A stretch of 53,590 nt of DNA from an uncultured Planctomycetia bacterium (lineage in GTDB: Bacteria > Omnitrophota > Gorgyraeia > 2-02-FULL-51-18): the NCBI GenBank assembly GCA_964374005.1, contig CAYJXB010000002.1, positions 1 through 53,590 of the forward strand. Direction: 5' to 3'. Every line of letters starts with the position of its first letter. The first letter of the stretch is position 1. Shown piece by piece: positions 21,148 to 53,514 of the stretch. Both the position numbers and the translations under genes were made by a program. The notes beneath the pieces were generated by a model. That model ran no database searches and had not been told where the DNA came from. It saw only the letters and a program-made list of their open reading frames with translations.

Positions 21148-21363
21148 ATGTCACAGGTGTTGGTTTCTACTAAATATCAGGTGGTGATCCCAAAAGAAGT
21201 CCGGCGAGAGCTGAACATTAAATCCGGGCAGAAGATGAGTTGTATTGCGATTAACGGCATCATTCATCTAGTGCCAGTAAGACCGATTTCTGAGATGAGA
21301 GGTTTTATTCCGAAAATCTCCCTCGAAGGGCTTCGCGAGAAAAAAGACAGGGATATTTCATGA
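21148..21363 (+). CDS. vapB: AbrB/MazE/SpoVT-family antitoxin (VapB-like)
   Basis: STKYQVVIPKEVRRELNIKSGQK swapped-hairpin motif; 71 aa; followed by a PIN gene. Confidence 0.75.
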   Translation: MSQVLVSTKYQVVIPKEVRRELNIKSGQKMSCIAINGIIHLVPVRPISEMRGFIPKISLEGLREKKDRDIS

Positions 21364-21433
21364 CCCCACCACTCTTTTGCAACGATTTTGAAAAAATCGG
21401 TCCGCATTCGCGGACCAAAGGAGTGGTGGGGTG
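21361..21433. repeat. CCCCACCAC/GTGGTGGGG junction element, copy A
   Basis: TGA-CCCCACCACTC ... internal hairpin ggtccgc-attc-gcggacc (21399-21416) ... GAGTGGTGGGG-TG. It fills the whole vapB-vapC gap. Its last G is the first base of the vapC GTG. Confidence 0.85.
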
Positions 21434-21808
21434 ATTGTGGTCGATTCCTCCGGCTGGATGCATTACTTTATGAATGGTGATCTAGCGGAAGCGTACTCCG
21501 GCTATATCAACAAGCCGGAAAACATTGCGACGCCCACGATTATTTCGTATGAAGTCTACAAGAAGATCAAGACAGAATTTAGTGAAGAAGAGGCCTATAT
21601 GGCAATGGCACAGATGCAGAAGACAAAGCTCGTTCCGTTGTCAGAATCTTTAGCCTATCATGCGGCGGATATATCTATCGAGCATAAATTGCCGATGGCT
21701 GATGCTATTATTTATTCAACAGCCGCTTATCTCAATGCCACGCTTGTGACGAGCGACGCCGATTTTAAAGGCCTTCCTAAAGTTACTTTTATTTCCGAGA
21801 AAGAATAA
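21431..21808 (+). CDS. vapC: PIN-domain ribonuclease toxin (VapC-like)
   Basis: MIVVDSSGW..., ADAIIYSTA, LVTSDADF acidic PIN motifs; GTG start. Confidence 0.8.
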   Translation: MIVVDSSGWMHYFMNGDLAEAYSGYINKPENIATPTIISYEVYKKIKTEFSEEEAYMAMAQMQKTKLVPLSESLAYHAADISIEHKLPMADAIIYSTAAYLNATLVTSDADFKGLPKVTFISEKE

Positions 21809-23611: not shown

Positions 23612-24067
23612 ATGAAGTATTCTAAAGTCGGTTTAGTGGTATTTTTGAGTTTGGCGCTGTCGGTCGCGGGGTGCGCAAAGAAAACGACGGATGAGGTGAG
23701 TCTTTCGGAAACGGGATTTGATTCGGTCGACAAAACCGAAGAATTGGCGCAGCTTCCTCAGGCCAATACGTCGAATCAGCAACAGGCCATTGAAATACTG
23801 CCCATAGAAACTTCTCCCGTCACACGGGGAGTGCCTGCAAGCACCAGTTTATCGACTGAGGTATTATCCCATAGCCAGCAGATTCAGACCGCGCTTAAAG
23901 CGGCCGGCTTTTACAGCGGCAACATTGACGGGAAAATAGGCCCCGCTTCGCGCAAAGCCATTCAGGATTTTCAGCAGAGCAACGGGCTTAAAGTAGACGG
24001 CAAGGTAGGCCCGAAGACTTGGGCTCTTTTGGAAAAATATTTGACGACGGAATCCTCAGGAAATTAA
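23612..24067 (+). CDS. Lipoprotein with C-terminal peptidoglycan-binding (PG_binding_1) domain
   Basis: Lipobox LSVAGC; IQTALKAAGFYSGNIDGKIGPASRKAIQDFQ...VDGKVGPKTW. Confidence 0.75.
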   Translation: MKYSKVGLVVFLSLALSVAGCAKKTTDEVSLSETGFDSVDKTEELAQLPQANTSNQQQAIEILPIETSPVTRGVPASTSLSTEVLSHSQQIQTALKAAGFYSGNIDGKIGPASRKAIQDFQQSNGLKVDGKVGPKTWALLEKYLTTESSGN

Positions 24068-24131
24068 CCAGTTTACCCGGCATTTTTTAACCTCGTTTTT
24101 TGTTCTTATACTTGCCTCGTCGTGCGCCCAT

Positions 24132-24163
24132 GCCGGCCACGAGGCCGGCCGGCCTTTGGCCGG
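24132..24163. repeat. 33-nt GC-rich palindromic element, copy 1 (in frame in sodC)
   Basis: gccggccacgaggccggccggcctttggccgg; reads AGHEAGRPLAG between the lipobox and the mature SodC domain. Confidence 0.9.
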
Positions 24164-24617
24164 TAGCGGAGTGGCAGTCATCAAAGGCACCGAAGCCAAT
24201 TCCTCTATCAGCGGGAAGGTGACGTTTCAAGAGACTGCGGAAGGACTCATAATTCACGCGGAGTTTCAAAATGCTCCTCCCGGCAAACACGGGTTTCATA
24301 TTCACGAGAACGGCGATTGCGGCGACAGCGGCAAAGCGGCCGGCGGCCATTACAATCCGGAAGGGGTGCCTCATGGGCTTCTTCTGAAGGATGGCCTCTC
24401 ACACGCGCATGCCGGCGACCTTGGGAATATTGACATCGCGGCCGACGGCAGCGGAAAACTTGACGCGGTGATTCCCGGTCTTACCTTGCAAGGCGGAAAA
24501 TACAAACTCTTCGGAAGGTCCGTGATTCTTCACGAGAAAGAAGATGATTTCGGACAACCGACCGGAAACGCCGGCGGAAGAATCGGTTGCGGGATCATTA
24601 CCGATGAGATAAAATGA
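24156..24617 (+). CDS. sodC: Cu/Zn superoxide dismutase; true start probably upstream of the ORF-track start
   Basis: GFHIHENGDCG, HYNPEG, HAGDLGNI, GGRIGCGII. The frame is open back to 24009 and encodes a lipoprotein-like signal FFVLILASSC. Confidence 0.8.
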   Translation: MAGSGVAVIKGTEANSSISGKVTFQETAEGLIIHAEFQNAPPGKHGFHIHENGDCGDSGKAAGGHYNPEGVPHGLLLKDGLSHAHAGDLGNIDIAADGSGKLDAVIPGLTLQGGKYKLFGRSVILHEKEDDFGQPTGNAGGRIGCGIITDEIK

Positions 24618-24648: not shown

Positions 24649-25038
24649 ATGCCGGCGCCCAAGAAGACCCGTGTGCTTTTTTTGGATGATGAGATGGAAT
24701 TTTTAGAGCTGGTGTCCGACCGCATGAGGCGGAAGGGCTATCAGGTGGCGACAAGAACCGATATTGATTCGGCGCTGGATCTGGTGCGTTCCCGCGAGGT
24801 CCATATGGTTTTTCTGGATTTTAAAATGCCGGTAGTGAATGGCTTGGAAGTTTTGACGAAAATCAGGGAGTGCGACAAGAACATCCCGGTGGTGATTGTT
24901 ACCGGCTATCCGGACGAAGCGATTGGCTCTGAATTTAAAGATTTGAATATTTCAGGTCTCTTTGCCAAGACTTCGAGCCTCGAGAATTTGGAGAGGGCGG
25001 TTGAAGTCGCCGTCAGAAATCTAAAGGGAAACAAGTAG
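24649..25038 (+). CDS. Single-domain response regulator (CheY-like receiver)
   Basis: RVLFLDDE, VFLDFKMPVVNG, PVVIVTGY; SD GGGGGA upstream. Confidence 0.8.
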   Translation: MPAPKKTRVLFLDDEMEFLELVSDRMRRKGYQVATRTDIDSALDLVRSREVHMVFLDFKMPVVNGLEVLTKIRECDKNIPVVIVTGYPDEAIGSEFKDLNISGLFAKTSSLENLERAVEVAVRNLKGNK

Positions 25039-25048
25039 AGCGTCCGGA

Positions 25049-26182
25049 ATGAGGCGTTTTCTGGCCTTCTCCTCTATGCTGTTTCTCGTCGTTTTGTTTT
25101 GCGGTGCCGTCGAGAAGGAAGATTTTGTCACGATCGGGCTTGTCGCTCCCTTGACGGGAGACCAGGCCTATGTGGGCACGGGCGTCATGTATGGGGCCCA
25201 GATGGCGGTCGAAGACGCGAATATCAAGGGCCTCGTTTTTGGAAACACGCGGCTTAAATTCACCGCCCTGGACGACCAGCACAATCCCACGCAGGCTGTG
25301 CTTGCTGCCAACAAGCTCGCCGCTGATCCGAATGTCATGGGAGTGGTCGGCCATTTCAACTCAAGCTGCACAAAAGCCGCCTCGTCCATTTATCACGAAA
25401 CACGCCTTGTGCAAATCACACCCGCCTCCACCAATCCCGATATTTCCCGCCAGGGTTTTGACACTTTTTTTCGCGTTTGCGCTACCGACGATGTCCAAGC
25501 GCCTGCCGGCGCCGATTTTGTCTGGAAAGAGTTGAAGGTGAAAAAAATCGTGATCGTGGACGATAAAACGACCTATGGCAAGGGGCTCGCGGACGAGTTT
25601 GAGAAGAGGTTTAGAAAGCTGGGAGGCGCTGTTTTGAGTCACGACGGAATCACACAAGGCGAAAAGGATTTTACGCCGCTTCTCACGAAGATTAAATCCT
25701 TGGGGCCTGAGCTTGTGTATTTCGGAGGCATCTACCCGGAGCTTTCGCTATTGATCAAGCAGTCGAGAAAAGTGGGGCTCGAGGTACCGTGGATGGGGGG
25801 CGACGGGATCTTTGATGTAACGCTCATCAAACTCGCGACACCCGAGCTCGCCGAAGGCACTTACGCGACGATGCTCGGCGTGGATCCGCATTCGCTACCG
25901 CAGGCGCAAGGATTCGTCACCAGGTTTGAGGCCAGGTATGGGGAAATAGGTTCGTTTTCCGCCTATGGCTATGACGCGGCGAATGTCCTGATCGAGGCGA
26001 TCCGCCGCGCCGGCAGAAAAGATAGGGAAGCGGTCCTGCGTGAAGTCAGGAATACCAAGGATTTTCAAGGGATGCTCGGCGTGATCAACTTTGACGAAAA
26101 GGGCGACGCGGTCGGAAGAAGCATCGGCATCTTCAAGGTGGAGAAAGGAAAATTTAAATTTTTGGAAGAATACAAACCGTGA
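25049..26182 (+). CDS. livK: Branched-chain amino acid ABC transporter substrate-binding protein
   Basis: Signal peptide; Leu/Ile/Val-binding family pattern (IGLVAPLTGDQA, VVGHFNSS, YFGGIYPE); followed by livHMGF. Confidence 0.8.
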   Translation: MRRFLAFSSMLFLVVLFCGAVEKEDFVTIGLVAPLTGDQAYVGTGVMYGAQMAVEDANIKGLVFGNTRLKFTALDDQHNPTQAVLAANKLAADPNVMGVVGHFNSSCTKAASSIYHETRLVQITPASTNPDISRQGFDTFFRVCATDDVQAPAGADFVWKELKVKKIVIVDDKTTYGKGLADEFEKRFRKLGGAVLSHDGITQGEKDFTPLLTKIKSLGPELVYFGGIYPELSLLIKQSRKVGLEVPWMGGDGIFDVTLIKLATPELAEGTYATMLGVDPHSLPQAQGFVTRFEARYGEIGSFSAYGYDAANVLIEAIRRAGRKDREAVLREVRNTKDFQGMLGVINFDEKGDAVGRSIGIFKVEKGKFKFLEEYKP

Positions 26183-27123: not shown

Positions 27124-28123
27124 TCATCCCTTTTCTTTCCAAGTCGCTTTATTTTTATTACCGTTCGCTTTGCTTCCTGTTTTGGATAAAAATACCTATC
27201 ACATTGATCTTCTGACGAATGTGGGCATCTACGTGCTTTTGGCCATGGGGCTGAACGTGGTGGTGGGTTTTACCGGCCTTTTGAATCTCGGATACGCGGC
27301 GTTTTTCGCGCTTGGCGCTTACGCCTACGCGCTTCTCAATCTTCATCTTGGCTGTCCTTTTTGGATCGGGCTGCCGGTCGCGGGGGTGGTGTCTATGATC
27401 TTCGGGCTTGTCATCGGACTTCCTTCGATCCGCGTGCGCGGCGATTATCTTGCGATCACGACCCTGGGTTTCGGAGAGATCGTCCGAATCTCGCTTAATA
27501 ATTTGGATGCGTGGACCGGCGGCCCCAACGGAATCTTGGGGATTGACCGACCGCGGCTTTGGCTTCCCGCCTTCGAGGGGGGATTTCATTGGAAGCTCTG
27601 GAGTTTTTCCGTGAATCCGACGCCTTATTTTTATCTGGTTCTCGCGTTGGTGGCCGTCACGGCCACTCTTTTATTTCGAATGAGCGATTCAAAAATGGGG
27701 AGGGCGCTTGTCGCGATTCGCGAAGACGAGCTCGCGGCCTCCTGCATGGGCATTCCGACGCTAAAGATCAAACTGGTTGCCTTTGGCCTCAGTTCTTTTA
27801 TCGCGGGCATGACCGGTGCGGTGTTTGCTTCGAAGCAGACCATTGTGACACCGGATAGCTTTGATTTCGTGCTTTCAGTGCTGATCCTGGCCATGGTGGT
27901 CTTAGGGGGGATGGGGAATATCTGGGGTTCGGCGCTAGGAGCGCTTGTCCTGGGGACGCTGCCGGAATTGTTGAGGGGTTTCGCCGCTTACCGGATGCTG
28001 CTTTTCGGTCTTCTCATGATTTTGATGATGATCTTTCGTCCCCAAGGGATTCTCGGAGGGCAGTTGATCCGCCGCGAGCTCGCATCCAGACAGAAAGAGG
28101 CGGACAATGACCCCACCACCTGA
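27098..28123 (+). CDS. livM: Branched-chain amino acid ABC permease (start uncertain)
   Basis: GLNVVVGFTGLLNLGYAAFFALGAY, LAITTLGFGEI. The last 4 codons lie inside junction element copy B. Confidence 0.75.
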   Translation: MNISRIKSNHPFSFQVALFLLPFALLPVLDKNTYHIDLLTNVGIYVLLAMGLNVVVGFTGLLNLGYAAFFALGAYAYALLNLHLGCPFWIGLPVAGVVSMIFGLVIGLPSIRVRGDYLAITTLGFGEIVRISLNNLDAWTGGPNGILGIDRPRLWLPAFEGGFHWKLWSFSVNPTPYFYLVLALVAVTATLLFRMSDSKMGRALVAIREDELAASCMGIPTLKIKLVAFGLSSFIAGMTGAVFASKQTIVTPDSFDFVLSVLILAMVVLGGMGNIWGSALGALVLGTLPELLRGFAAYRMLLFGLLMILMMIFRPQGILGGQLIRRELASRQKEADNDPTT

Positions 28124-28190
28124 TTTGTCCGCCACAGGCGGACGACATGAAATGTCCGATCCTTTGGATCGAAAATCAGGTGGTGGGGTG
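28108..28190. repeat. CCCCACCAC/GTGGTGGGG junction element, copy B (inverted relative to A and C)
   Basis: TGA-CCCCACCACCTGATTT ... gtccgcc-aca-ggcggac ... AAATCAGGTGGTGGGG-TG. 16-bp terminal stem. The livM stop at 28121-23 lies in the 5-prime arm, and the livG GTG at 28188 is at the tip of the 3-prime arm. Confidence 0.85.
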
Positions 28191-28949
28191 AATCTGCTTG
28201 AGGTAAAGTCCATTTCAAAAAATTTTGGCGGAGTGACCGCTCTAAAAGATATCAGCGTGGGGGTGAACGATCGGGAGATCGTGGGCTTGATCGGCCCCAA
28301 CGGCGCTGGCAAAACGTCTTTTTTTAATTGCGTCACGGGCCTGGTACCGATCGATCGAGGGGAGATTCTCTTTTGTGGGCATCTGCGGTTGAACGGTTTG
28401 CCGCCCCATCGGATCCTTGAAGCGGGCGTTGCGCGGACATTTCAAAATTTGAGGATCTTCAAACACATGACGCTGTTGGAGAATGTCGCGGTCGGGTTTC
28501 ACGCGCGCACCCGCTCTGGACTTTGGGACGCTTTTTTGAAGACACGGTGTCTGAGGATCGAGGAGAAAAAGATTTTCACCGGCAGCATGGAGTTTTTGGC
28601 GTTTGTGGGGCTTGAGAAACATGGAAACGACACCGCCGCTTTTCTACCCTATGGCCTTCAAAAGCGCCTCGAGATCGCGCGGGCGCTGGCCTCCGGTCCG
28701 AAACTGCTTTTGCTGGATGAGCCGGTCGCCGGCATGAATCCTCAAGAGAAAAATGAGATCATCGCGCTCGTGCGCAAGATCCGCGAGAAAGGCATCGCCG
28801 TTTTATTGATCGAACATGACATGAAAGTGGTCATGCCCTTGTCGGACCGCGTGATCGTGATGGACGAGGGAGCCAAGATCGGGGAGGGGCTTCCCGATGA
28901 CATTCAGAATAACCCCCGCGTCATTCAGGCATATCTGGGGGAGGGTTAA
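28188..28949 (+). CDS. livG: Branched-chain amino acid ABC transporter ATP-binding protein
   Basis: VNLLEVKSISKNFGGVTAL, GPNGAGKTS Walker A, LPYGLQKRLEIARAL, LLLDEP. The ORF-track start at 28107 adds 27 residues that are encoded by the repeat element. Confidence 0.8.
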   Translation: MNLLEVKSISKNFGGVTALKDISVGVNDREIVGLIGPNGAGKTSFFNCVTGLVPIDRGEILFCGHLRLNGLPPHRILEAGVARTFQNLRIFKHMTLLENVAVGFHARTRSGLWDAFLKTRCLRIEEKKIFTGSMEFLAFVGLEKHGNDTAAFLPYGLQKRLEIARALASGPKLLLLDEPVAGMNPQEKNEIIALVRKIREKGIAVLLIEHDMKVVMPLSDRVIVMDEGAKIGEGLPDDIQNNPRVIQAYLGEG

Positions 28950-31055: not shown

Positions 31056-31649
31056 GTGATTTACCTCGCCTCGACCTCCCCGCGGCGCAAGGCGATTTTA
31101 AAAGGGTCCGGTATTCGGTTTCGTGCGGTGAAGCCGGATTACAACGAGGAGAAACCGGCAGGAAACCTTTCACCGTCCATGGTCGTCAAAAAACATGCGC
31201 TCGCGAAGGCGATATCCGTTGCGAAAAAAGTTAGCAGGGGGATCGTGATCGGCGCCGATACGGTCGTCTATTTTCGCGGAAAAATCATCGGCAAGCCCAA
31301 AAACCTTAAAGAGGCCGTCGGGATTCTAGGGGCGCTCGCAGGGCGCTGGCATCTTGTTTATACCGGCGTGGCTCTGCTCAAAATAAGCGGTGACGCGGTA
31401 AGAAAAAGAATCGTTTTTCACGAAAAAACCAGGGTCCATCTGAAACGCATGAACCGGAAGGCCCTCCGCGGGTATTTCAAGAAGATCCATCCCTTGGACA
31501 AGGCGGGCGCCTACGCCATTCAATCGAAGCGGGCCGGCCACGAGGCCGGCCGGCCTTTGGCCGGCATCGTGCAGGAGATCCGGGGCTCTTATTCGAACGC
31601 CATGGGGTTGCCGGTCGAAAAATTATGTGATAGACTTAAAAAATTATGA
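31056..31649 (+). CDS. maf: Maf-family nucleoside-triphosphate pyrophosphatase
   Basis: IYLASTSPRR, GADTVV, DKAGAYAIQ ... GSYSNAMGLP. It carries palindromic element copy 2. Confidence 0.85.
   Translation: MIYLASTSPRRKAILKGSGIRFRAVKPDYNEEKPAGNLSPSMVVKKHALAKAISVAKKVSRGIVIGADTVVYFRGKIIGKPKNLKEAVGILGALAGRWHLVYTGVALLKISGDAVRKRIVFHEKTRVHLKRMNRKALRGYFKKIHPLDKAGAYAIQSKRAGHEAGRPLAGIVQEIRGSYSNAMGLPVEKLCDRLKKL
31533..31565. repeat. 33-nt GC-rich palindromic element, copy 2 (in frame in maf)
   Basis: gccggccacgaggccggccggcctttggccggc = AGHEAGRPLAG. Confidence 0.9.
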
Positions 31650-32042: not shown

Positions 32043-32276
32043 ATGACAAAGACAACATTCACTGAGCTTAGAAAGCACGCCAAGACCTATTTTGATTCGG
32101 TTGAACGGGGGGCGACCATCCAAGTTTTAAGGCATGGTAAGGTGATAGCTGAGATTACCCCTCCGCATGAAAGCGCGGAAAATAAAACATGGAAAAAACC
32201 AGGACTTAAACTTAAAATTTTAGGTGTCTCGGGGAGCAAGGTTATTATCAAGGAACGCGGAGAATCTCGCTTTTGA
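32043..32276 (+). CDS. Phd/YefM-family antitoxin
   Basis: TFTELRKHAKTYFDSVERGATIQVLRHGKVIAEI; 4-nt overlap with the PIN gene. Confidence 0.7.
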   Translation: MTKTTFTELRKHAKTYFDSVERGATIQVLRHGKVIAEITPPHESAENKTWKKPGLKLKILGVSGSKVIIKERGESRF

Positions 32277-32686
32277 AATTCTACTTTGATTCCTCCGCGC
32301 TCCTAAAAAGGTACATCGCCGAAAAAGGAAGCGATCTCATTGACGGTCTTTTTCTTGAAGCGGATTCCGTGGTGGTAAGCAGCATTTGTTTACTGGAGAT
32401 CATATCTGCCCTCTCGCGGCTTCGTAGAGAAAAAAAACTGAACGCCCACCAATACAACCAATGCAAGAGGGCCGCACTAGAGGACTTCGCGGCATTTGAA
32501 GTGTGTCAATTGTCGTCCGAAGTGTTGAGAACAACCATTCATATTTTGGAACACAGCGAATTGCGAGCGGCAGATGCCCTGCACGTGGCATCTGCGATCA
32601 ATGCCAAAGTATCCCGATTTGTTTCAAGCGATGCCAAGCAGATCATCACGGCCAAAGAATTCAATTTGACGGTGGATTCGGTCTGA
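32273..32686 (+). CDS. vapC: PIN-domain toxin (VapC-like)
   Basis: MKFYFDSSALLKRY, LRAADALHVASA, FVSSD. Confidence 0.75.
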   Translation: MKFYFDSSALLKRYIAEKGSDLIDGLFLEADSVVVSSICLLEIISALSRLRREKKLNAHQYNQCKRAALEDFAAFEVCQLSSEVLRTTIHILEHSELRAADALHVASAINAKVSRFVSSDAKQIITAKEFNLTVDSV

Positions 32687-32711: not shown

Positions 32712-33188
32712 GTGAGCGACAAAATTCCAATGACTCGTGAGGGTTATGACAAGCTGGTAAAGGAGCTTGAGTATTTGAAAACCAGCAAGCGCCGGGCGAT
32801 CGCGGAGGACATCGCAAAGGCCAGGGCATTCGGAGACTTGAAAGAAAACGCGGAATATGACGCGGCTAAAAATAACCAGGCGCATAATGAGAGGAAGATT
32901 GCCGACATCGAGCAGCGGCTTGAGCGGGTGCAGATCATTGACGAGACGAAAATCCCGAAAGACCAGGTGTTTATCGGCGCAACCGTGAAGCTTAAAGATC
33001 TTGGCACGAATGAAGAACTCAACTATTCGATCGTCCCTCAGGATGAGGCCGATTTTGACCAGGGGAAAATCTCAGTGACCTCTCCGATCGCGAAAGGGCT
33101 TCTTGGTTTAAAGGTGGGTGATACCGCTCAGATCAAAATTCCCGCCGGCACCCTTAAGTACAAAGTGCTGAAGATATCCCGCCAATAA
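32712..33188 (+). CDS. greA: Transcription elongation factor GreA
   Basis: MTREGYDKLVKELEYLK, GDLKENAEYDAAK, SVTSPIAKGLLG. Confidence 0.9.
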   Translation: MSDKIPMTREGYDKLVKELEYLKTSKRRAIAEDIAKARAFGDLKENAEYDAAKNNQAHNERKIADIEQRLERVQIIDETKIPKDQVFIGATVKLKDLGTNEELNYSIVPQDEADFDQGKISVTSPIAKGLLGLKVGDTAQIKIPAGTLKYKVLKISRQ

Positions 33189-33320
33189 ATAACCAATAAC
33201 CAAGCACCAATTTCCAAATAATAACCAATCCCCAATTACCAATAGCCAAACACGTGTTTGGAGCTTGAAATTTGAGTGTTGGAATTTATTTGGATCTTGT
33301 GATTTGGTTATTGGTTATTT
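33187..33320. repeat. 134-nt imperfect hairpin made of two inverted CCAA-rich units
   Basis: aaataaccaataaccaa (33187-203) pairs perfectly with ttggttattggttattt (33304-320). The centre is aaacacgtgttt. The right arm is the reverse complement of the unit seen at 46874 and 53451. Confidence 0.85.
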
Positions 33321-41208: not shown

Positions 41209-41664
41209 TCAGTCCAAAAATGGCTCTACCCATTTCCTAAAAAGTTTAAGTCCATCCGCAGGCACAACAATTGGAAAATCGACCAATGACTCCACGCCAG
41301 GAAGCATGAAGTCCCGCGTGTTCCATGTGACAAACGCCGAAACCTTAGCCAAATGAGCGGCACACAGTATCGTGGCATCGCCTTTGCGAAGCTTTTGTAA
41401 GAACGGTTTTGTCTGCTCGGCTGTCGGATTGGGGGCGATTTCGGGGCCGAGGTCCTTCCAAAGCTTTCGACTCACGTGAATCAGATCAGGAAATTTTGTG
41501 GCAAGAACTCTATCAGATTCGGTTATCACTTCTTCTGACGCTACCATCGTAACGGCTTCTGCTTCCACCAAACGCGCAAGTTCTCCTGCGGCGCCTTCCG
41601 GAGAAAGAAGCGCCGCAATATAAACGCTAGTATCAAAAAAGAGCCGGTATCTCGGAACAGGCAT
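41209..41664 (-). CDS. PIN-domain toxin
   Basis: YRLFFDTSVYIAAL, paired with an upstream AbrB-type antitoxin gene. Confidence 0.7.
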   Translation of the reverse strand: MPVPRYRLFFDTSVYIAALLSPEGAAGELARLVEAEAVTMVASEEVITESDRVLATKFPDLIHVSRKLWKDLGPEIAPNPTAEQTKPFLQKLRKGDATILCAAHLAKVSAFVTWNTRDFMLPGVESLVDFPIVVPADGLKLFRKWVEPFLD

Positions 41665-46394: not shown

Positions 46395-46868
46395 GTGACA
46401 CATCGAAGTCATTACTATGTCTCATTGTTTCTTACGGGTGTTTTGTTTCTTTCCGGCTGCGCCACCACGCGGGCAAAACGTGACGCCACAACGGATCTTC
46501 AGAGTCAGGTCACAGAGCTTCAAAGCCAACTGCAGGGCAAAGATCAGGAAATTCAAGAGCTACAAGCGCGGCTTGAGAGCTATGAGCGCGCGATTCAAAG
46601 CACCCCCACCTACGCCGGCCACAAGGCCGGCCGGCCTTTGGCCGGCAGCAATATTTCAACGTCTTCACTGATCCGAGTTTCCGGCGTCTCCGTGAAAGAT
46701 CTTCAACAGGCGCTTGTGCGCGCGGGGCTTGACCCGGGACCGGTGGACGGGCGAATGGGCAAGAGGACAAAAGCGGCTATCAAGGAATTTCAGCGAAGCC
46801 ACCATTTACGCGTTGACGGGATTGTTGGAGAAAAAACCTGGAGTTTATTAAGTCACAAATCCCAATGA
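46395..46868 (+). CDS. Lipoprotein with coiled-coil and peptidoglycan-binding domain
   Basis: AAGGAGG RBS, GTG start, lipobox FLSGC, LQQALVRAGLDPGPVDGRMG...VDGIVGEKTW. Confidence 0.75.
   Translation: MTHRSHYYVSLFLTGVLFLSGCATTRAKRDATTDLQSQVTELQSQLQGKDQEIQELQARLESYERAIQSTPTYAGHKAGRPLAGSNISTSSLIRVSGVSVKDLQQALVRAGLDPGPVDGRMGKRTKAAIKEFQRSHHLRVDGIVGEKTWSLLSHKSQ
46614..46646. repeat. 33-nt GC-rich palindromic element, copy 3 (in frame)
   Basis: gccggccacaaggccggccggcctttggccggc = AGHKAGRPLAG. Confidence 0.9.
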
Positions 46869-46873
46869 TAAAG

Positions 46874-47007
46874 GAATAACCAATGACCAAATTACAAGGT
46901 CCAAATAAGTTCCAATACCCAAATTACAAGCTCCAAACTAGTGTTTGGTTCTTGGGTTTTGGTTTTTGGTGCTTATTTGGAAATTGGTGCTCGGGATTTG
47001 TGATTTA
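46874..47007. repeat. CCAA-rich unit plus inverted TTGG-rich partner (imperfect hairpin)
   Basis: The left arm gaataaccaatgaccaaattacaaggtccaaataag... closely matches 53451..53514. The centre is ccaaac-tag-tgtttgg. It fills the gap between the stop at 46868 and the mgtE ATG at 47014. Confidence 0.8.
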
Positions 47008-48397: not shown

Positions 48398-49081
48398 TTG
48401 GAAGCATTGAAGCGCGTGATCTTGTGCTCGTTGATTTTTTTTACGGCGGCCAATGCCTTCGCCGGCCATAAGGCCGGCCGGCCTTTGGCCGGCGGCATCG
48501 AATACGCGAAAGTCTTGGACGCGACCGGCACCGCGGAGATTTATTCCGCTCCCGGTTCTGAATGGCGCCCAATCCTTAAGGACTCTTTCTTGGAGAATGG
48601 AAACGTGGTACGGACGGGCCTGGGAAGCGAGATACACTTGGTGTTGGACTCCAATCTTGGAAGTGCGGCGAGGATCGGAGGAAACTCCCGCGCGCGGTTT
48701 TTGACCGTTCGGCCTTTCGAGATCGTCTTGGAGCAAGGCGTTTTTTTTATTTTCAATGACAGAACGACCGCGGATTCCGAGCCGCCGCTGATCATCCAGA
48801 CAAAAGATGTTTCGATAGCTCTGAAGTTCGGTGGATGTCAGGTCATTTCCTCGAATGGGGGATTGTTGATAAAAGTTTTCGCCGATCATGCAGAAGTTTC
48901 AATCAGGGCGTCCGACAATCAAAAAACCGTCTCCCAAACGGTCCGCGAGGGATTCAAGTGTTTCGTCAGCCGTTCCACAAGCCGCCTGTCATTAAAACGG
49001 ATGACCTATCGTGATTACGACGATTGGCAGGTTTGGATCCAGAAAATGGCCGGGGTTAAAGATGTCCTCATGGACGAATAA
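48398..49081 (+). CDS. Secreted FecR-domain-like protein
   Basis: Signal peptide ending ANAFA. GNVVRTGLGSEIHLVLDSNLGSAARIGGNS resembles the FecR fold pattern. Confidence 0.5.
   Translation: MEALKRVILCSLIFFTAANAFAGHKAGRPLAGGIEYAKVLDATGTAEIYSAPGSEWRPILKDSFLENGNVVRTGLGSEIHLVLDSNLGSAARIGGNSRARFLTVRPFEIVLEQGVFFIFNDRTTADSEPPLIIQTKDVSIALKFGGCQVISSNGGLLIKVFADHAEVSIRASDNQKTVSQTVREGFKCFVSRSTSRLSLKRMTYRDYDDWQVWIQKMAGVKDVLMDE
48461..48493. repeat. 33-nt GC-rich palindromic element, copy 4 (in frame)
   Basis: gccggccataaggccggccggcctttggccggc = AGHKAGRPLAG, directly after the signal peptide. Confidence 0.9.
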
Positions 49082-50558
49082 AAACTCCGCCGTTTTATTC
49101 TTGGCGACGGTGTTGCTTTCCTCATTTTTGTTCTTTTTTAAACTGGGGGACAGAAGCTTCCGAAATCCGGACGAGGGGCGGTATGCCGCGATTGCCAAGG
49201 AAATGGTCCTTCGAAATGACTGGGTCGAACCGCGGCTCTACGGGATAGATTATCTCAAGAAACCTATTCTTTTTTACTGGCTCCTGGCGATCTCGTTCAA
49301 GATTTTTGGATTCAGCGAGTTTGCCGCCCGTTTGGTACCAGCCTTGTTTGGCATCTTGGGTGTCTGCATGACTTTTTTTTTCGCAAAAAGAGTCTTTGAC
49401 GCCAACGTCGCTTTTTACGCGGCGCTTATTTTAACCACCAATTTTTGGTATCTTCAAGTAGGACGCTATTTGTTGATCGATATGCTTTTTTCATTTTTGG
49501 CGGTCGCGGCGCTCTATTCGTTCTATCTTGCGAGAATCGAAGGCCGCCATCGCAAGACGTATAATCTTTTATTTTATGCCTCTGTTTCTCTCGCTTTTCT
49601 TACCAAAGGGGTGATCGGCATCGCCATTCCGGGAGTGGCCGTTGTTTTGTACATGATCACTCACCGGCAATTTGTAAAGCTTCTGTCTGAAATGGACCTG
49701 GCGGCGGGCGCCTTGATTTTTGCATTGATCGTTCTCCCATGGTTCGTTCTGATTTCTTTAAAAGAGCCTGAATTTATCCGTATATTCTTTTTTCACGAAC
49801 ACTGGACGCGCTTTGTCTCCAGTCAATTTGAGCATCAGGAGGGATGGTATTATTATTTTCTTGCCGTCCCTGTTTTGCTGCTGCCGTGGACGCTATTCGT
49901 GGTGCCGCTCACCCGTTCTTTTTCCGTCGTTAAGGACAAAGCCGCCCGTGTGCCGCACGTATTTTTACTCGGGTCTGCGTTAGGTCTCGTTATTTTTTTC
50001 TCGCTCTCCAGATCAAAATTGCCGACTTACATTCTTCCGTGCATTCCGCTCTTTTCGGTTTTTTTGGGGTATGCCTTGGCCCAGTCAAGCGCAAAGAAAT
50101 TGTTTTATGCCCTGATTACGGCCATGGTTCTCATTTCGATTCCGATCGCTTATCTCATGGAAAAATTCAATCGAAATTACACGACGAAACCTTTTGCGCA
50201 AACGCTGCGCCCTTTGTTGAAAGCCGATGATCCCGTGTTTATTTACGATCATCCGGGACCTTTTTATGATTTTCGCTTCTACTTGGATCATCCGGTCAAA
50301 TTGATAGGCCTCGAAGGGGAATTCAGATATCTGGATGAGAACCTCAATGCCCGGCTGGCGAAGGATGAAAAAGAGTCCTGGATCACGCGCGAAGAGTTTT
50401 ATGAAATGCTGAAGCAGGGAAAGAAATTATATTGTCTGATCCGACGCTCTGATTTTTCGGAGATGGATCCGGAGATCCTTAAACAAACGCTTATCTTGAG
50501 CCAGGATGAGCGTAAGATACTCTTTTCCAGCGGTGGAAAAAAGGAGGTGGTGGGGTGA
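49062..50558 (+). CDS. ArnT/PMT-like membrane glycosyltransferase (GT39/GT83 type)
   Basis: RNPDEGRYAAIAKEM, KPILFYWL, about 11 TM segments. Start taken at MSSWTNK. Confidence 0.7.
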   Translation: MSSWTNKNSAVLFLATVLLSSFLFFFKLGDRSFRNPDEGRYAAIAKEMVLRNDWVEPRLYGIDYLKKPILFYWLLAISFKIFGFSEFAARLVPALFGILGVCMTFFFAKRVFDANVAFYAALILTTNFWYLQVGRYLLIDMLFSFLAVAALYSFYLARIEGRHRKTYNLLFYASVSLAFLTKGVIGIAIPGVAVVLYMITHRQFVKLLSEMDLAAGALIFALIVLPWFVLISLKEPEFIRIFFFHEHWTRFVSSQFEHQEGWYYYFLAVPVLLLPWTLFVVPLTRSFSVVKDKAARVPHVFLLGSALGLVIFFSLSRSKLPTYILPCIPLFSVFLGYALAQSSAKKLFYALITAMVLISIPIAYLMEKFNRNYTTKPFAQTLRPLLKADDPVFIYDHPGPFYDFRFYLDHPVKLIGLEGEFRYLDENLNARLAKDEKESWITREEFYEMLKQGKKLYCLIRRSDFSEMDPEILKQTLILSQDERKILFSSGGKKEVVG

Positions 50559-50630
50559 CCCCACCACCTGTTTTCTACGATTGCTCCAAGCAATCGGTCC
50601 GCTTTGCGGACAAAACAAGTGGTGGGGTGA
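50547..50630. repeat. CCCCACCAC/GTGGTGGGG junction element, copy C, flanked by 12-nt direct repeats
   Basis: GTGGTGGGGTGA (50547-558) - CCCCACCACCTGTTTT ... ggtccgc-ttt-gcggac ... AAAACAA - GTGGTGGGGTGA (50619-630). Confidence 0.85.
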
Positions 50631-52151: not shown

Positions 52152-53462
52152 TTGTCCAAAAAAGAATACTCCCTTCAGATCATCCGTACCCTTCGGAAAG
52201 AAGGGCACCAGGCCTATTTTGTGGGCGGATGCGTCAGAGATCTTCTGCTTAAAAAAAATCCCAAAGATTTTGATATTGCGACCGACGCTATCCCAAAACA
52301 GGTCGCGTCGATATTCCCAAAAACGATTCCGGTGGGGGCTCAATTCGGCGTCATGCTGGTCGTCGAAGGAGGCCAGACCTTCGAGGTGGCGACTTTCCGT
52401 GCCGATAAAGGATACCGGGACGGGCGCCATCCGGTCGGGGTACGGTTTACTGACGCGAAAGAAGACGCGCTGCGCCGCGATTTCACCGTCAATGGGCTTT
52501 TTTTTGATCCTATCACGCGGCAGGTCATGGACTGGGTGGAAGGCAAAAAGGACCTGAAGAAAAGAATCATCCGCGCGATCGGCGATCCCAAGAAGCGCTT
52601 TATGGAAGATAAGCTGCGCATGCTGCGCGCGGTCCGGTTTGCGAGCGTGTTGGGATTCAGGATCGAGCCGAAAACATTTTTAGCGATCAAGAAACTTTCC
52701 AAAAATATCCGCCAGGTCAGTCAAGAGCGCGTGAGGGATGAGCTCGTCAAGATGTTCACGGGTCCACACCCGGCCACGGCGCTTGAGCTTTTGGATAAAT
52801 CCGGGCTTTTGCCGGAAGTTTTGCCTGAGGTGGAAAAGATGAAGGGCGTTCAGCAGCCGAAGGCCTTTCATCCGGAAGGGGATGTGTTCATTCATACGAA
52901 GCTTTTGATGAAACAGCTTGAAAACGCGTCACCGGTACTGGCGTTTGGTTGCCTGTTGCATGATGTCGGGAAGCCCGCGACGTACCGGCGGTCGGACCGC
53001 ATCCGGTTTAACGGCCATGACCACGTCGGCGCCAAGATCACCGAAAAGGTTCTGGAGCGCCTCCGTTTTTCGAATGAGCTTAAAAATCAGATCGTGGCCT
53101 GCGTGGAAGGCCATATGCGCTTTAAGGACGTTCGATCCATGCGAGAAAGCACGCTCAAGAAATTCATGCAGCGCCAGACTTTCGAGACCGAGCTTGAGCA
53201 GCATCGAATTGATTGTTTGGCGAGCCACGGGGACCTCACGAACTGGCGATTTCTCAAAAAAAAGGCCCGCCAGTTCACCAAGGAAGACATTAGACCTACG
53301 CCATTGATCAATGGAAAGGATTTATTGGGGCTCGGGTTTGCGGAAGGCCCGTTGATCGGGAAGATTTTGAGAGCGGCGGAAGAAGCTCAATTGGAAAGAA
53401 AGGTCGCCACAAAAGAAGAAGCGTTAGAGTGGGTGAAGAGGGAATTTAAAAATAACCAATGA
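52152..53462 (+). CDS. cca: CCA-adding tRNA nucleotidyltransferase with HD domain
   Basis: GGCVRDLLL, DFDIAT, RDFTVNG, HD motif LLHDVGK. TTG start. Confidence 0.8.
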   Translation: MSKKEYSLQIIRTLRKEGHQAYFVGGCVRDLLLKKNPKDFDIATDAIPKQVASIFPKTIPVGAQFGVMLVVEGGQTFEVATFRADKGYRDGRHPVGVRFTDAKEDALRRDFTVNGLFFDPITRQVMDWVEGKKDLKKRIIRAIGDPKKRFMEDKLRMLRAVRFASVLGFRIEPKTFLAIKKLSKNIRQVSQERVRDELVKMFTGPHPATALELLDKSGLLPEVLPEVEKMKGVQQPKAFHPEGDVFIHTKLLMKQLENASPVLAFGCLLHDVGKPATYRRSDRIRFNGHDHVGAKITEKVLERLRFSNELKNQIVACVEGHMRFKDVRSMRESTLKKFMQRQTFETELEQHRIDCLASHGDLTNWRFLKKKARQFTKEDIRPTPLINGKDLLGLGFAEGPLIGKILRAAEEAQLERKVATKEEALEWVKREFKNNQ

Positions 53463-53514
53463 CCAAATCACAAGATCCAAATAAATTCCAATATCCAAAT
53501 TCGAAATTCCAAAG
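53451..53514. repeat. CCAA-rich unit, single copy (contains the cca stop codon)
   Basis: aataaccaatgaccaaatcacaagatccaaataaattccaatatccaaatt..., close to 46875.. and to the reverse complement of 33255-33303. Confidence 0.8.

Follow-up and report, generated by a model that had tools for sequence, protein, structure and literature searches.

A GC-rich palindrome inserted in frame in unrelated genes of Candidatus Omnitrophota

Introduction

How does one and the same GC-rich palindrome come to lie, always in a single reading phase, inside four unrelated genes of one bacterial contig? The window analysed here, by which the whole stretch of DNA is meant, comes from Candidatus Omnitrophota as an NCBI MAG contig of 53,590 bp, has a G+C content of about 50% and bears most of its genes on the + strand. 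According to the original prediction, a 33-nt palindrome had been inserted in frame into four genes of the window, in the manner of the Rickettsia palindromic elements (RPEs). About a dozen copies, from the window and from fetched loci of relatives (numbered L001 onwards), form the basis of the present analysis.

Copies of the repeat and their host genes

A pattern search with GCCGGCCAYRAGGCCGGCCGGCCTTTGGCCGGY, in which up to three mismatches were allowed, recovered exactly four copies in the window, all on the + strand and with at most one mismatch. They start at 24132, 31533, 46614 and 48461, as predicted; the first ends at 24164 and not at 24163. No copy of the 33-mer appeared in 100 dinucleotide-preserving shuffles of the window (0.00 expected), and the core GGCCGGCCGGCC did not occur in the window beyond the four copies. 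The ORF lists and their translation showed that all four belong to ORFs of the + strand and share the phase giving AGH(E/K)AGRPLAG. The copies, their host genes and two free target sites are the following.

24063..24617, + strand, host gene SodC (Sod_Cu), start codon uncertain
24132..24164, + strand, copy 1, variant CACGAG, in SodC directly after the lipobox Cys (C-AH-AGHEAGRPLAG-SG)
25106..25111, + strand, free degenerate target GCCGTC after the LivK lipobox Cys, filled in L002
26009..26014, + strand, free GCCGGC target in the LivK-like gene, filled forward in L001/L015 and backward (decayed) in L011
31056..31649, + strand, host gene Maf (ORF list, structure alignment)
31533..31565, + strand, copy 2, variant CACGAG, in Maf between the conserved AYAIQ and GSYSNAMGLP motifs
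46395..46868, + strand, host gene of a PG_binding_1 lipoprotein (ORF list, Pfam, recorded gene call)
46614..46646, + strand, copy 3, variant CACAAG, in the lipoprotein linker between coiled-coil region and PG_binding_1 domain
48416..49081, + strand, host gene of a secreted protein with a weak DUF7354/MtxA_N match, coordinates as in the recorded gene call P0242
48461..48493, + strand, copy 4, variant CATAAG, directly after the signal peptide of the secreted protein

The element is about 80% G+C and measures 27 bp, or 33 bp with its target. Its terminal inverted repeats are the arms CAYRAGGCCGG and CCGGCCTTTG, and the 33-mer forms a hairpin of 14 bp and one bulge, with energies of about -15 kcal/mol for DNA and -27 for RNA. 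It is thus a near-perfect palindrome, as had been proposed, but with a 2-nt bulge (YR) opposite a 1-nt bulge (T) instead of two 2-nt bulges. Intact copies vary only at the bulge (nt 9-10) and at the last base, barring one left-flank substitution at the LivK N-terminus of L002. Inserted forward, the element encodes HEAGRPLAG or QKAGRPLAG, and backward QRPAGL(V/M)AG. The commonest bulge variants contain no stop codon in any reading frame; the other two frames of the element read PATRPAGLWPA or RPRGRPAFGR, the second with a stop in the CATAAG and CATGAG variants.

For the host of copy 4, Pfam yielded only a sub-threshold match to DUF7354/MtxA_N, so the earlier label "FecR-like" is unsupported. 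In SodC, the recorded gene call begins at GTG 24171, just past the element, and the signal peptide is therefore lost from the annotation; the element's internal TTG and the GTG just downstream offer alternative start codons for gene calling. Comparison between species nevertheless supports the in-frame reading of this copy, as the open signal-peptide frame is conserved in three species and a remnant of the element in L003 is in frame.

SodC carries a good lipoprotein signal peptide (FFVLILASSC), yet no upstream ATG, GTG or TTG is present in the window. The leader is conserved and common to L002 and L003, and a conserved GGAAATTAACC hints at translation from an ATT at 24063, a start codon overlapping with the stop of the gene before it. 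The SodC genes of L011, L013 and L014 have ordinary GTG starts.

Comparison of filled and empty sites

Relatives were fetched through homologues of MgtE and LivK; they are congeneric Omnitrophota with about 87-91% nucleotide identity. At four loci, filled sites could be compared with empty orthologous sites, and the difference was always exactly 27 nt (9 aa). The mid-gene LivK site is empty in the window (...CGCCGC GCCGGC AGAAAA), while L001 has 27 additional nt after GCCGGC. At the LivK N-terminus, the site is filled in L002 and empty in the window, with the same difference. The PG-binding gene is empty in L004 and L005 (TAT GCCGGC AGC) and 27 nt shorter than in the window. Finally, the SodC site bears a full copy in L002 and is empty, 27 nt shorter, in L011 (CAT GCCGGC AGA) and in L013/L014 (CAT GCCGGT AGC). 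Every empty site holds one pre-existing GCCGG(C/T), encoding Ala-Gly, and a filled site has the structure GCCGGC-CAYRAGGCCGGCCGGCCTTTG-GCCGGY. The 33-mer is therefore an insert together with its target.

Protein structures gave the same picture. When Maf was aligned with the solved structures 2p5x and 1ex2, a 9-residue gap fell exactly at the element; the Maf insertion is read from such alignments only, the window Maf product being without an exact database record. The LivK of L001 showed a 9-residue gap against the solved structure 3td9, and in the AlphaFold model of the filled LivK the insert lies at a helix-loop-helix junction (pLDDT about 88). The motif was present in only one of 120 LivK homologues, namely the L001 protein, so the AGH(E/K)AGRPLAG peptide is not a conserved protein feature. 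No Pfam family matched in the window covers the element peptide, and orthologues from unrelated taxa with the same residues were not seen.

Judged from these alignments, the repeat is a genuine insertion of 27 nt, not of 33. The orthologue comparison thus bore out the predicted insertion at tolerant positions of unrelated ORFs, with empty sites in SodC, the PG-binding gene and both LivK positions, and reduced its size from 11 residues to nine, the flanking Ala-Gly being the target. In total, eight insertion events may be deduced, at seven sites in six unrelated genes (NCBI, JGI, ENA and Logan assemblies).

As to target duplication, a filled GCCGGC...GCCGGY against a single empty copy is compatible with 0, 2, 4 or 5 bp, lengths between which a nested palindrome allows no distinction. 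On the right-hand side, GCCGGT or GCCGGA is found in some cases, and the empty GCCGGT site in SodC (L013/L014) argues against a full 6-bp duplication.

Orientation

The same-orientation claim held inside the window, where four of four copies are on the + strand, and failed in the relatives. At the copy-4 site, L012 contains GCCGGCCAAAGGCCGGCCGGCCTTATGGCCGGC, which matches window copy 4 exactly when reverse-complemented, down to the CATAAG bulge variant, and reads AGQRPAGLMAG. The MgtE of L012 is 96% identical in protein sequence to the window MgtE. A second reverse copy, decayed, occupies the mid-gene LivK site of L011, where L001 has a forward copy; both are of the CAGAAG variant. The reverse copies in relatives read AGQRPAGL(M/L)AG. 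Two sites with opposite orientations and the same bulge variant point to flipping in place, although repeated insertion would also fit.

Remnants and sequence conservation

Partly deleted copies were found as well. SodC of L003 bears the 18-nt remnant GCCGGCCACGAGACCGGT, with a 15-nt loss and one substitution, and the copy-4 site of L004/L005 a 21-nt remnant in reverse orientation (12-nt loss). At the LivK N-terminus of L003, L010 and P0246, a remnant reading (A/V)(R/G/D)QSLAG adds 15 nt (5 aa) to the empty site. Within the 33-mer, GCCGGC repeats lie at nt 1, 13, 17 and 28. The spacings between them are 4, 11, 12, 15, 16 and 27 nt, of which only the in-frame 12, 15 and 27 were observed. This series fits slippage between direct repeats across the hairpin, filtered by selection for an open frame, as the probable origin of the losses.

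Intact copies seem to diverge little. In two orthologous intact pairs, 2 of 66 positions differ, with flanks about 12% different; about 8 differences would be expected over the 66 positions (Poisson P about 0.014, by our own arithmetic). Such low divergence may reflect self-correction of the stem, gene conversion or a recent re-insertion. The decayed L011 copy has five substitutions, and each of them leaves the RNA hairpin intact (a compensatory pair, two G-U pairs and a change in the loop), with a folding energy of -21.6 kcal/mol. As a single case, it is a weak sign of possible selection on an RNA hairpin.

Target sites and reading phase

That all copies of the window are coding and in one phase, with none intergenic, was confirmed, and the distribution of the target mostly accounts for it. 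Outside the element, the window contains 35 free GCCGGC sites, of which 34 are coding and 24 (69%) are in the GCC-GGC phase 0; four of the 39 GCCGGC sites are occupied. Since such a target is mostly coding and in one phase, no intergenic copy is expected, and the uniform phase follows for the most part from where GCCGGC is placed. With GCCGGC as target, eight of eight events in phase 0 have a P of about 0.05. For the 5-mer GCCGG, phase 0 accounts for about 48% of sites, and the same outcome has a P of about 0.003; if GCCGG is the true target, selection against the other frames is therefore also needed. An insertion aware of strand or frame was ruled out as a necessary assumption by the GCCGGC phase counts together with the reverse copies.

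Distribution in public data

A pattern scan gave one match in GTDB species representatives and two in JGI metagenomes; no copy was found in the viral contigs scanned. The scans contributed three extra loci, in a LivK-like binding protein (L001), a SodC orthologue (L002) and an HI0933-like flavoprotein (L003), all intragenic and in the same phase as the window copies. The element family is thus rare in public data, and of all sources seen, the window is the richest (four copies in 53.6 kb).

At protein level, a motif profile made from the window copies and searched against 1.84 billion representatives (E <= 0.001) had a sole match, P0248, which was rejected as an unrelated repeat protein containing DPAGRPLAGS. 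An X-padded 11-mer profile, with a predicted E of about 0.05, gave one candidate and no match in an index of 5.8 billion proteins.

Mechanism of insertion and spread

The element is probably a miniature non-autonomous palindromic insertion element of 27 bp that integrates at GCCGG(C/T), with a trans-acting enzyme as the preferred means of its spread. Insertion at this target, in both orientations and with an in-frame series of deletions, is demonstrated by the comparisons of loci given above. In the proposed course of events, the 27-bp unit would integrate into the short palindromic GCCGG(C/T) and thereby produce the 33-bp nested palindrome. Because GCCGGC is here mostly the codon pair GCC-GGC (Ala-Gly), most insertions are intragenic, in one phase, and add nine residues. 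They would survive where nine flexible residues are tolerated, i.e. in lipoprotein tethers, regions following signal peptides, linkers and loops between helices. After insertion, the hairpin and the internal GCCGGC repeats would drive further change, by flipping in place, by loss of 12 or 15 nt, or by precise loss of 27 nt, the last of which would restore the host gene. Neither flipping nor partial deletion nor precise loss would need an enzyme, as replication slippage or template switching across the hairpin could bring about all three. For the spread to new sites, we infer an enzyme encoded elsewhere in the genome that recognises the hairpin in single-stranded DNA and acts in trans, in the manner of RAYT or IS200/IS605.

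Such an enzyme is favoured because only one GCCGGC-bounded sequence has multiplied, while an unspecific process should move any such segment. It is a hypothetical one, since neither the window nor the gene tables of related loci (about 120 kb) showed a transposase, RAYT or restriction-modification gene. Neither solo ends nor a parent IS were detected in the window beyond the four copies, no IS was present in the related loci (about 170 kb in total), and Rfam gave no match anywhere in the window at gathering thresholds. To our knowledge, no element as short as 21-27 bp is moved by a transposase.

It is possible, but we consider it less likely, that the spread is free of any enzyme, the 27-mer being copied into GCCGGC sites by microhomology-mediated template switching or short-tract gene conversion. 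The terminal 6-bp palindromic repeats would then serve as switch points and the hairpin would stall replication, and flips and deletions would arise likewise. The target sequence at both ends of the element, the two orientations expected of palindromic microhomology, the fall of every deletion between GCCGGC repeats and the lack of a mobilising gene in the window all agree with this. However, any short GCCGGC-bounded segment should multiply in the same way, and the repeat listing of the window shows no other; moreover, this route requires two ectopic switches with 6 nt of homology, which should happen very seldom, while 4 of the 39 sites in the window are filled. A bolder reading, which we regard as rather unlikely, joins this route with a nuclease: the 27-bp palindrome would be a self-sufficient "site parasite" that spreads, flips and excises by its hairpin and GCCGGC microhomology with no dedicated transposase, through replication template switching or through a hijacked host nuclease of GCCGGC specificity.

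Could the peptide or the RNA be the selected feature instead? The AG(H/Q)(E/K)AGRPLAG peptide, or the mRNA hairpin of -27 kcal/mol, would then be functional and repeatedly recruited, for example for translation pausing after the signal peptide. Three of the seven sites do follow a signal peptide or lipobox immediately, intact copies are better conserved than their flanks, and the substitutions of the L011 copy all keep the hairpin. Such a function is improbable, as the orthologues work with empty sites, the two orientations encode different peptides, and remnants with 12- or 15-nt deletions persist. The Ala-Gly-rich tethers are simply where GCCGGC occurs and insertion is tolerated, and conservation limited to the stem is also explicable by self-correction of the palindrome.

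Slightly less probable again is cut-and-ligate transfer by a restriction-type nuclease of NaeI/NgoMIV specificity, with the 27-bp fragment religated either way round at GCCGGC. It would explain why target and all rearrangement breakpoints coincide with GCCGGC, why both orientations occur and why GCCGGC reappears at the left end of a filled site and GCCGGY at its right end; cleavage at internal sites would yield the 12- and 15-nt losses. However, GCCGGC is neither avoided nor depleted in the window (39 observed against 35 expected), where no restriction or methylase gene was found, and a strict 6-bp cutter would not cleave the GCCGGT or GCCGGA right ends or the empty GCCGGT site. Here too, any GCCGGC-bounded fragment should multiply. 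Adapter or linker contamination or an assembly error, which the restriction-site-like motifs (GCCGGC, GGCCGGCC) might bring to mind, can be dismissed, given copies at orthologous positions in independent assemblies from four sources, a reading frame that is always preserved, and the presence of substitutional decay and in-frame deletions.

Comparison with known elements

The ten RPE families of Rickettsia, RPE-1 to RPE-10, have units of about 100-150 bp (Ogata et al. 2000, 2002, reviewed in PMC10969869). Like them, the Omnitrophota element is a dispersed palindromic repeat that lies in frame in unrelated housekeeping genes and adds a peptide at tolerated surface positions without inactivating the host protein, and no cognate transposase is known for either. 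RPEs, however, are AT-biased, restricted to Rickettsia and without a defined short target (PMC10969869), whereas the present element has 27 bp, about 80% G+C, the target GCCGG(C/T), apparent in-place flipping and a repeat-mediated deletion series. The predicted likeness to RPEs therefore applies to behaviour, as an in-frame palindromic repeat, and not to family membership, the unit being 27 bp long and from Omnitrophota.

REPs are also imperfect GC-rich hairpins of 20-40 nt with a bulge, a size and shape that the 33-nt hairpin with 14 bp and one bulge shares, and a mechanism based on hairpin recognition in single-stranded DNA is plausible for both. REPs carry a GTAG or CGTC tetranucleotide at one end, and some are intragenic and encode neutral residues (PMC3733652), a behaviour that the element resembles. 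Neither tetranucleotide was found at a conserved position in the flanks of 11 copies of the element, the ends of which are GCCGGC and GCCGGY. All copies of the element are intragenic singletons, while REPs are mostly extragenic and often in inverted pairs (REPIN/BIME) and have no known GCCGGC-type target on both sides. No gene for a RAYT (Y1 HUH transposase) was found in the window or in the fetched relative loci.

With MITEs such as Correia/NEMIS, ERIC and Chunjie, the element shares terminal inverted repeats, an apparent target duplication and occasional in-frame fusion to an ORF (PMC10969869). As a rule, MITEs measure 50-500 bp, are rich in AT, lie mostly between genes and can be traced to a parent IS whose ends they share (PMC10969869). 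The Omnitrophota unit, in contrast, is 21-27 bp, well below any MITE in size, and has no parent IS in the roughly 170 kb surveyed.

Two further systems are similar in part. The G+C-rich palindromic clusters of yeast mitochondria are mobile, about 30-50 bp long and optional between strains, and some lie inside var1. They resemble the element in being short, GC-rich, optional, in frame in a protein gene and spread with no known dedicated transposase, but they belong to an organelle genome with an AT-rich background, have other target or flank motifs and show no sequence relationship. Precise excision of Tn10/Tn5 proceeds by slippage between target duplications, is stimulated by inverted repeats and is independent of transposase. 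It offers a route for the 27-nt loss and for the 12- and 15-nt deletions between direct repeats flanking the hairpin; it accounts for loss only and not for spread to new sites.

In the literature, no description was found of such an element in Omnitrophota or at GCCGGC sites. As a small selfish palindromic insert that protein loops tolerate, the element is of an ordinary kind, but it is undescribed and unusually minimal.

Other features of the window and its relatives

The window also contains a second family of small palindromic repeats, of about 75-85 nt, at 21361-21435, 28108-28191 and 50556-50630. They end in 12-nt inverted repeats, TGACCCCACCAC ... GTGGTGGGGTGA, with more hairpins inside, and all three lie at gene junctions, where a TGA is provided by the left end and the right end has the look of a ribosome-binding site with a GTG start after it. 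Window 28111-28188 is missing from L009 and L010, which shows that the repeat between LivM and LivG was inserted. In addition, AT-rich tracts with an 8-nt period (NNACCAAA-like) are present at 33188-33250, 46843-46937 and 53451-53513, with a mutual identity of 63-87%. The genes concerned are GreA, the PG-binding gene and the contig's last gene, and each tract overlaps the respective stop codon or begins there.

The first 21 kb are filled by a single uninterrupted ORF of 6970 codons (18-20930), and L009 carries, at the same position, the C-terminal 1565 residues of a similar gene. Three PIN-domain genes, probable toxin components, lie within 20 kb (21431-21808, 32273-32686 and 41209-41664).

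Between SodC and LivK, the window and L002 have a response-regulator gene (24649-25038 in the window), and L015 has one ahead of LivK; L003, L011 and L013/L014 lack the gene, and L009 lacks SodC itself. This pattern of presence and absence indicates that the region is often rearranged among congeners. The contig of L001/L015 (CAYJVC010000012.1) has about 70% nucleotide identity to the window and shares with it the gene order PG-binding, response regulator, LivKHMGF, HI0933-like, GreA, Dus. It is titled "uncultured Planctomycetia bacterium", a label that may be wrong. The HI0933-like orthologue of L015 was considered as an empty site and dropped as too diverged.

Significance

In-frame palindromic elements are among the few documented sources of new peptide segments inside existing bacterial proteins. 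The present one is easy to analyse, with a 27-bp unit, a defined palindromic target of 5-6 bp, and filled, empty, flipped and partly deleted states among congeners, and its reading-frame bias follows from codon usage and need not be assumed. If the element should prove self-sufficient, it would be smaller than any mobile DNA known so far and would create 9-residue (or 4-5-residue) protein indels directly and reversibly. It may thus serve as a compact system for studying the need for a transposase, reversible coding indels driven by a hairpin, and the variation of loops and linkers in uncultured phyla.
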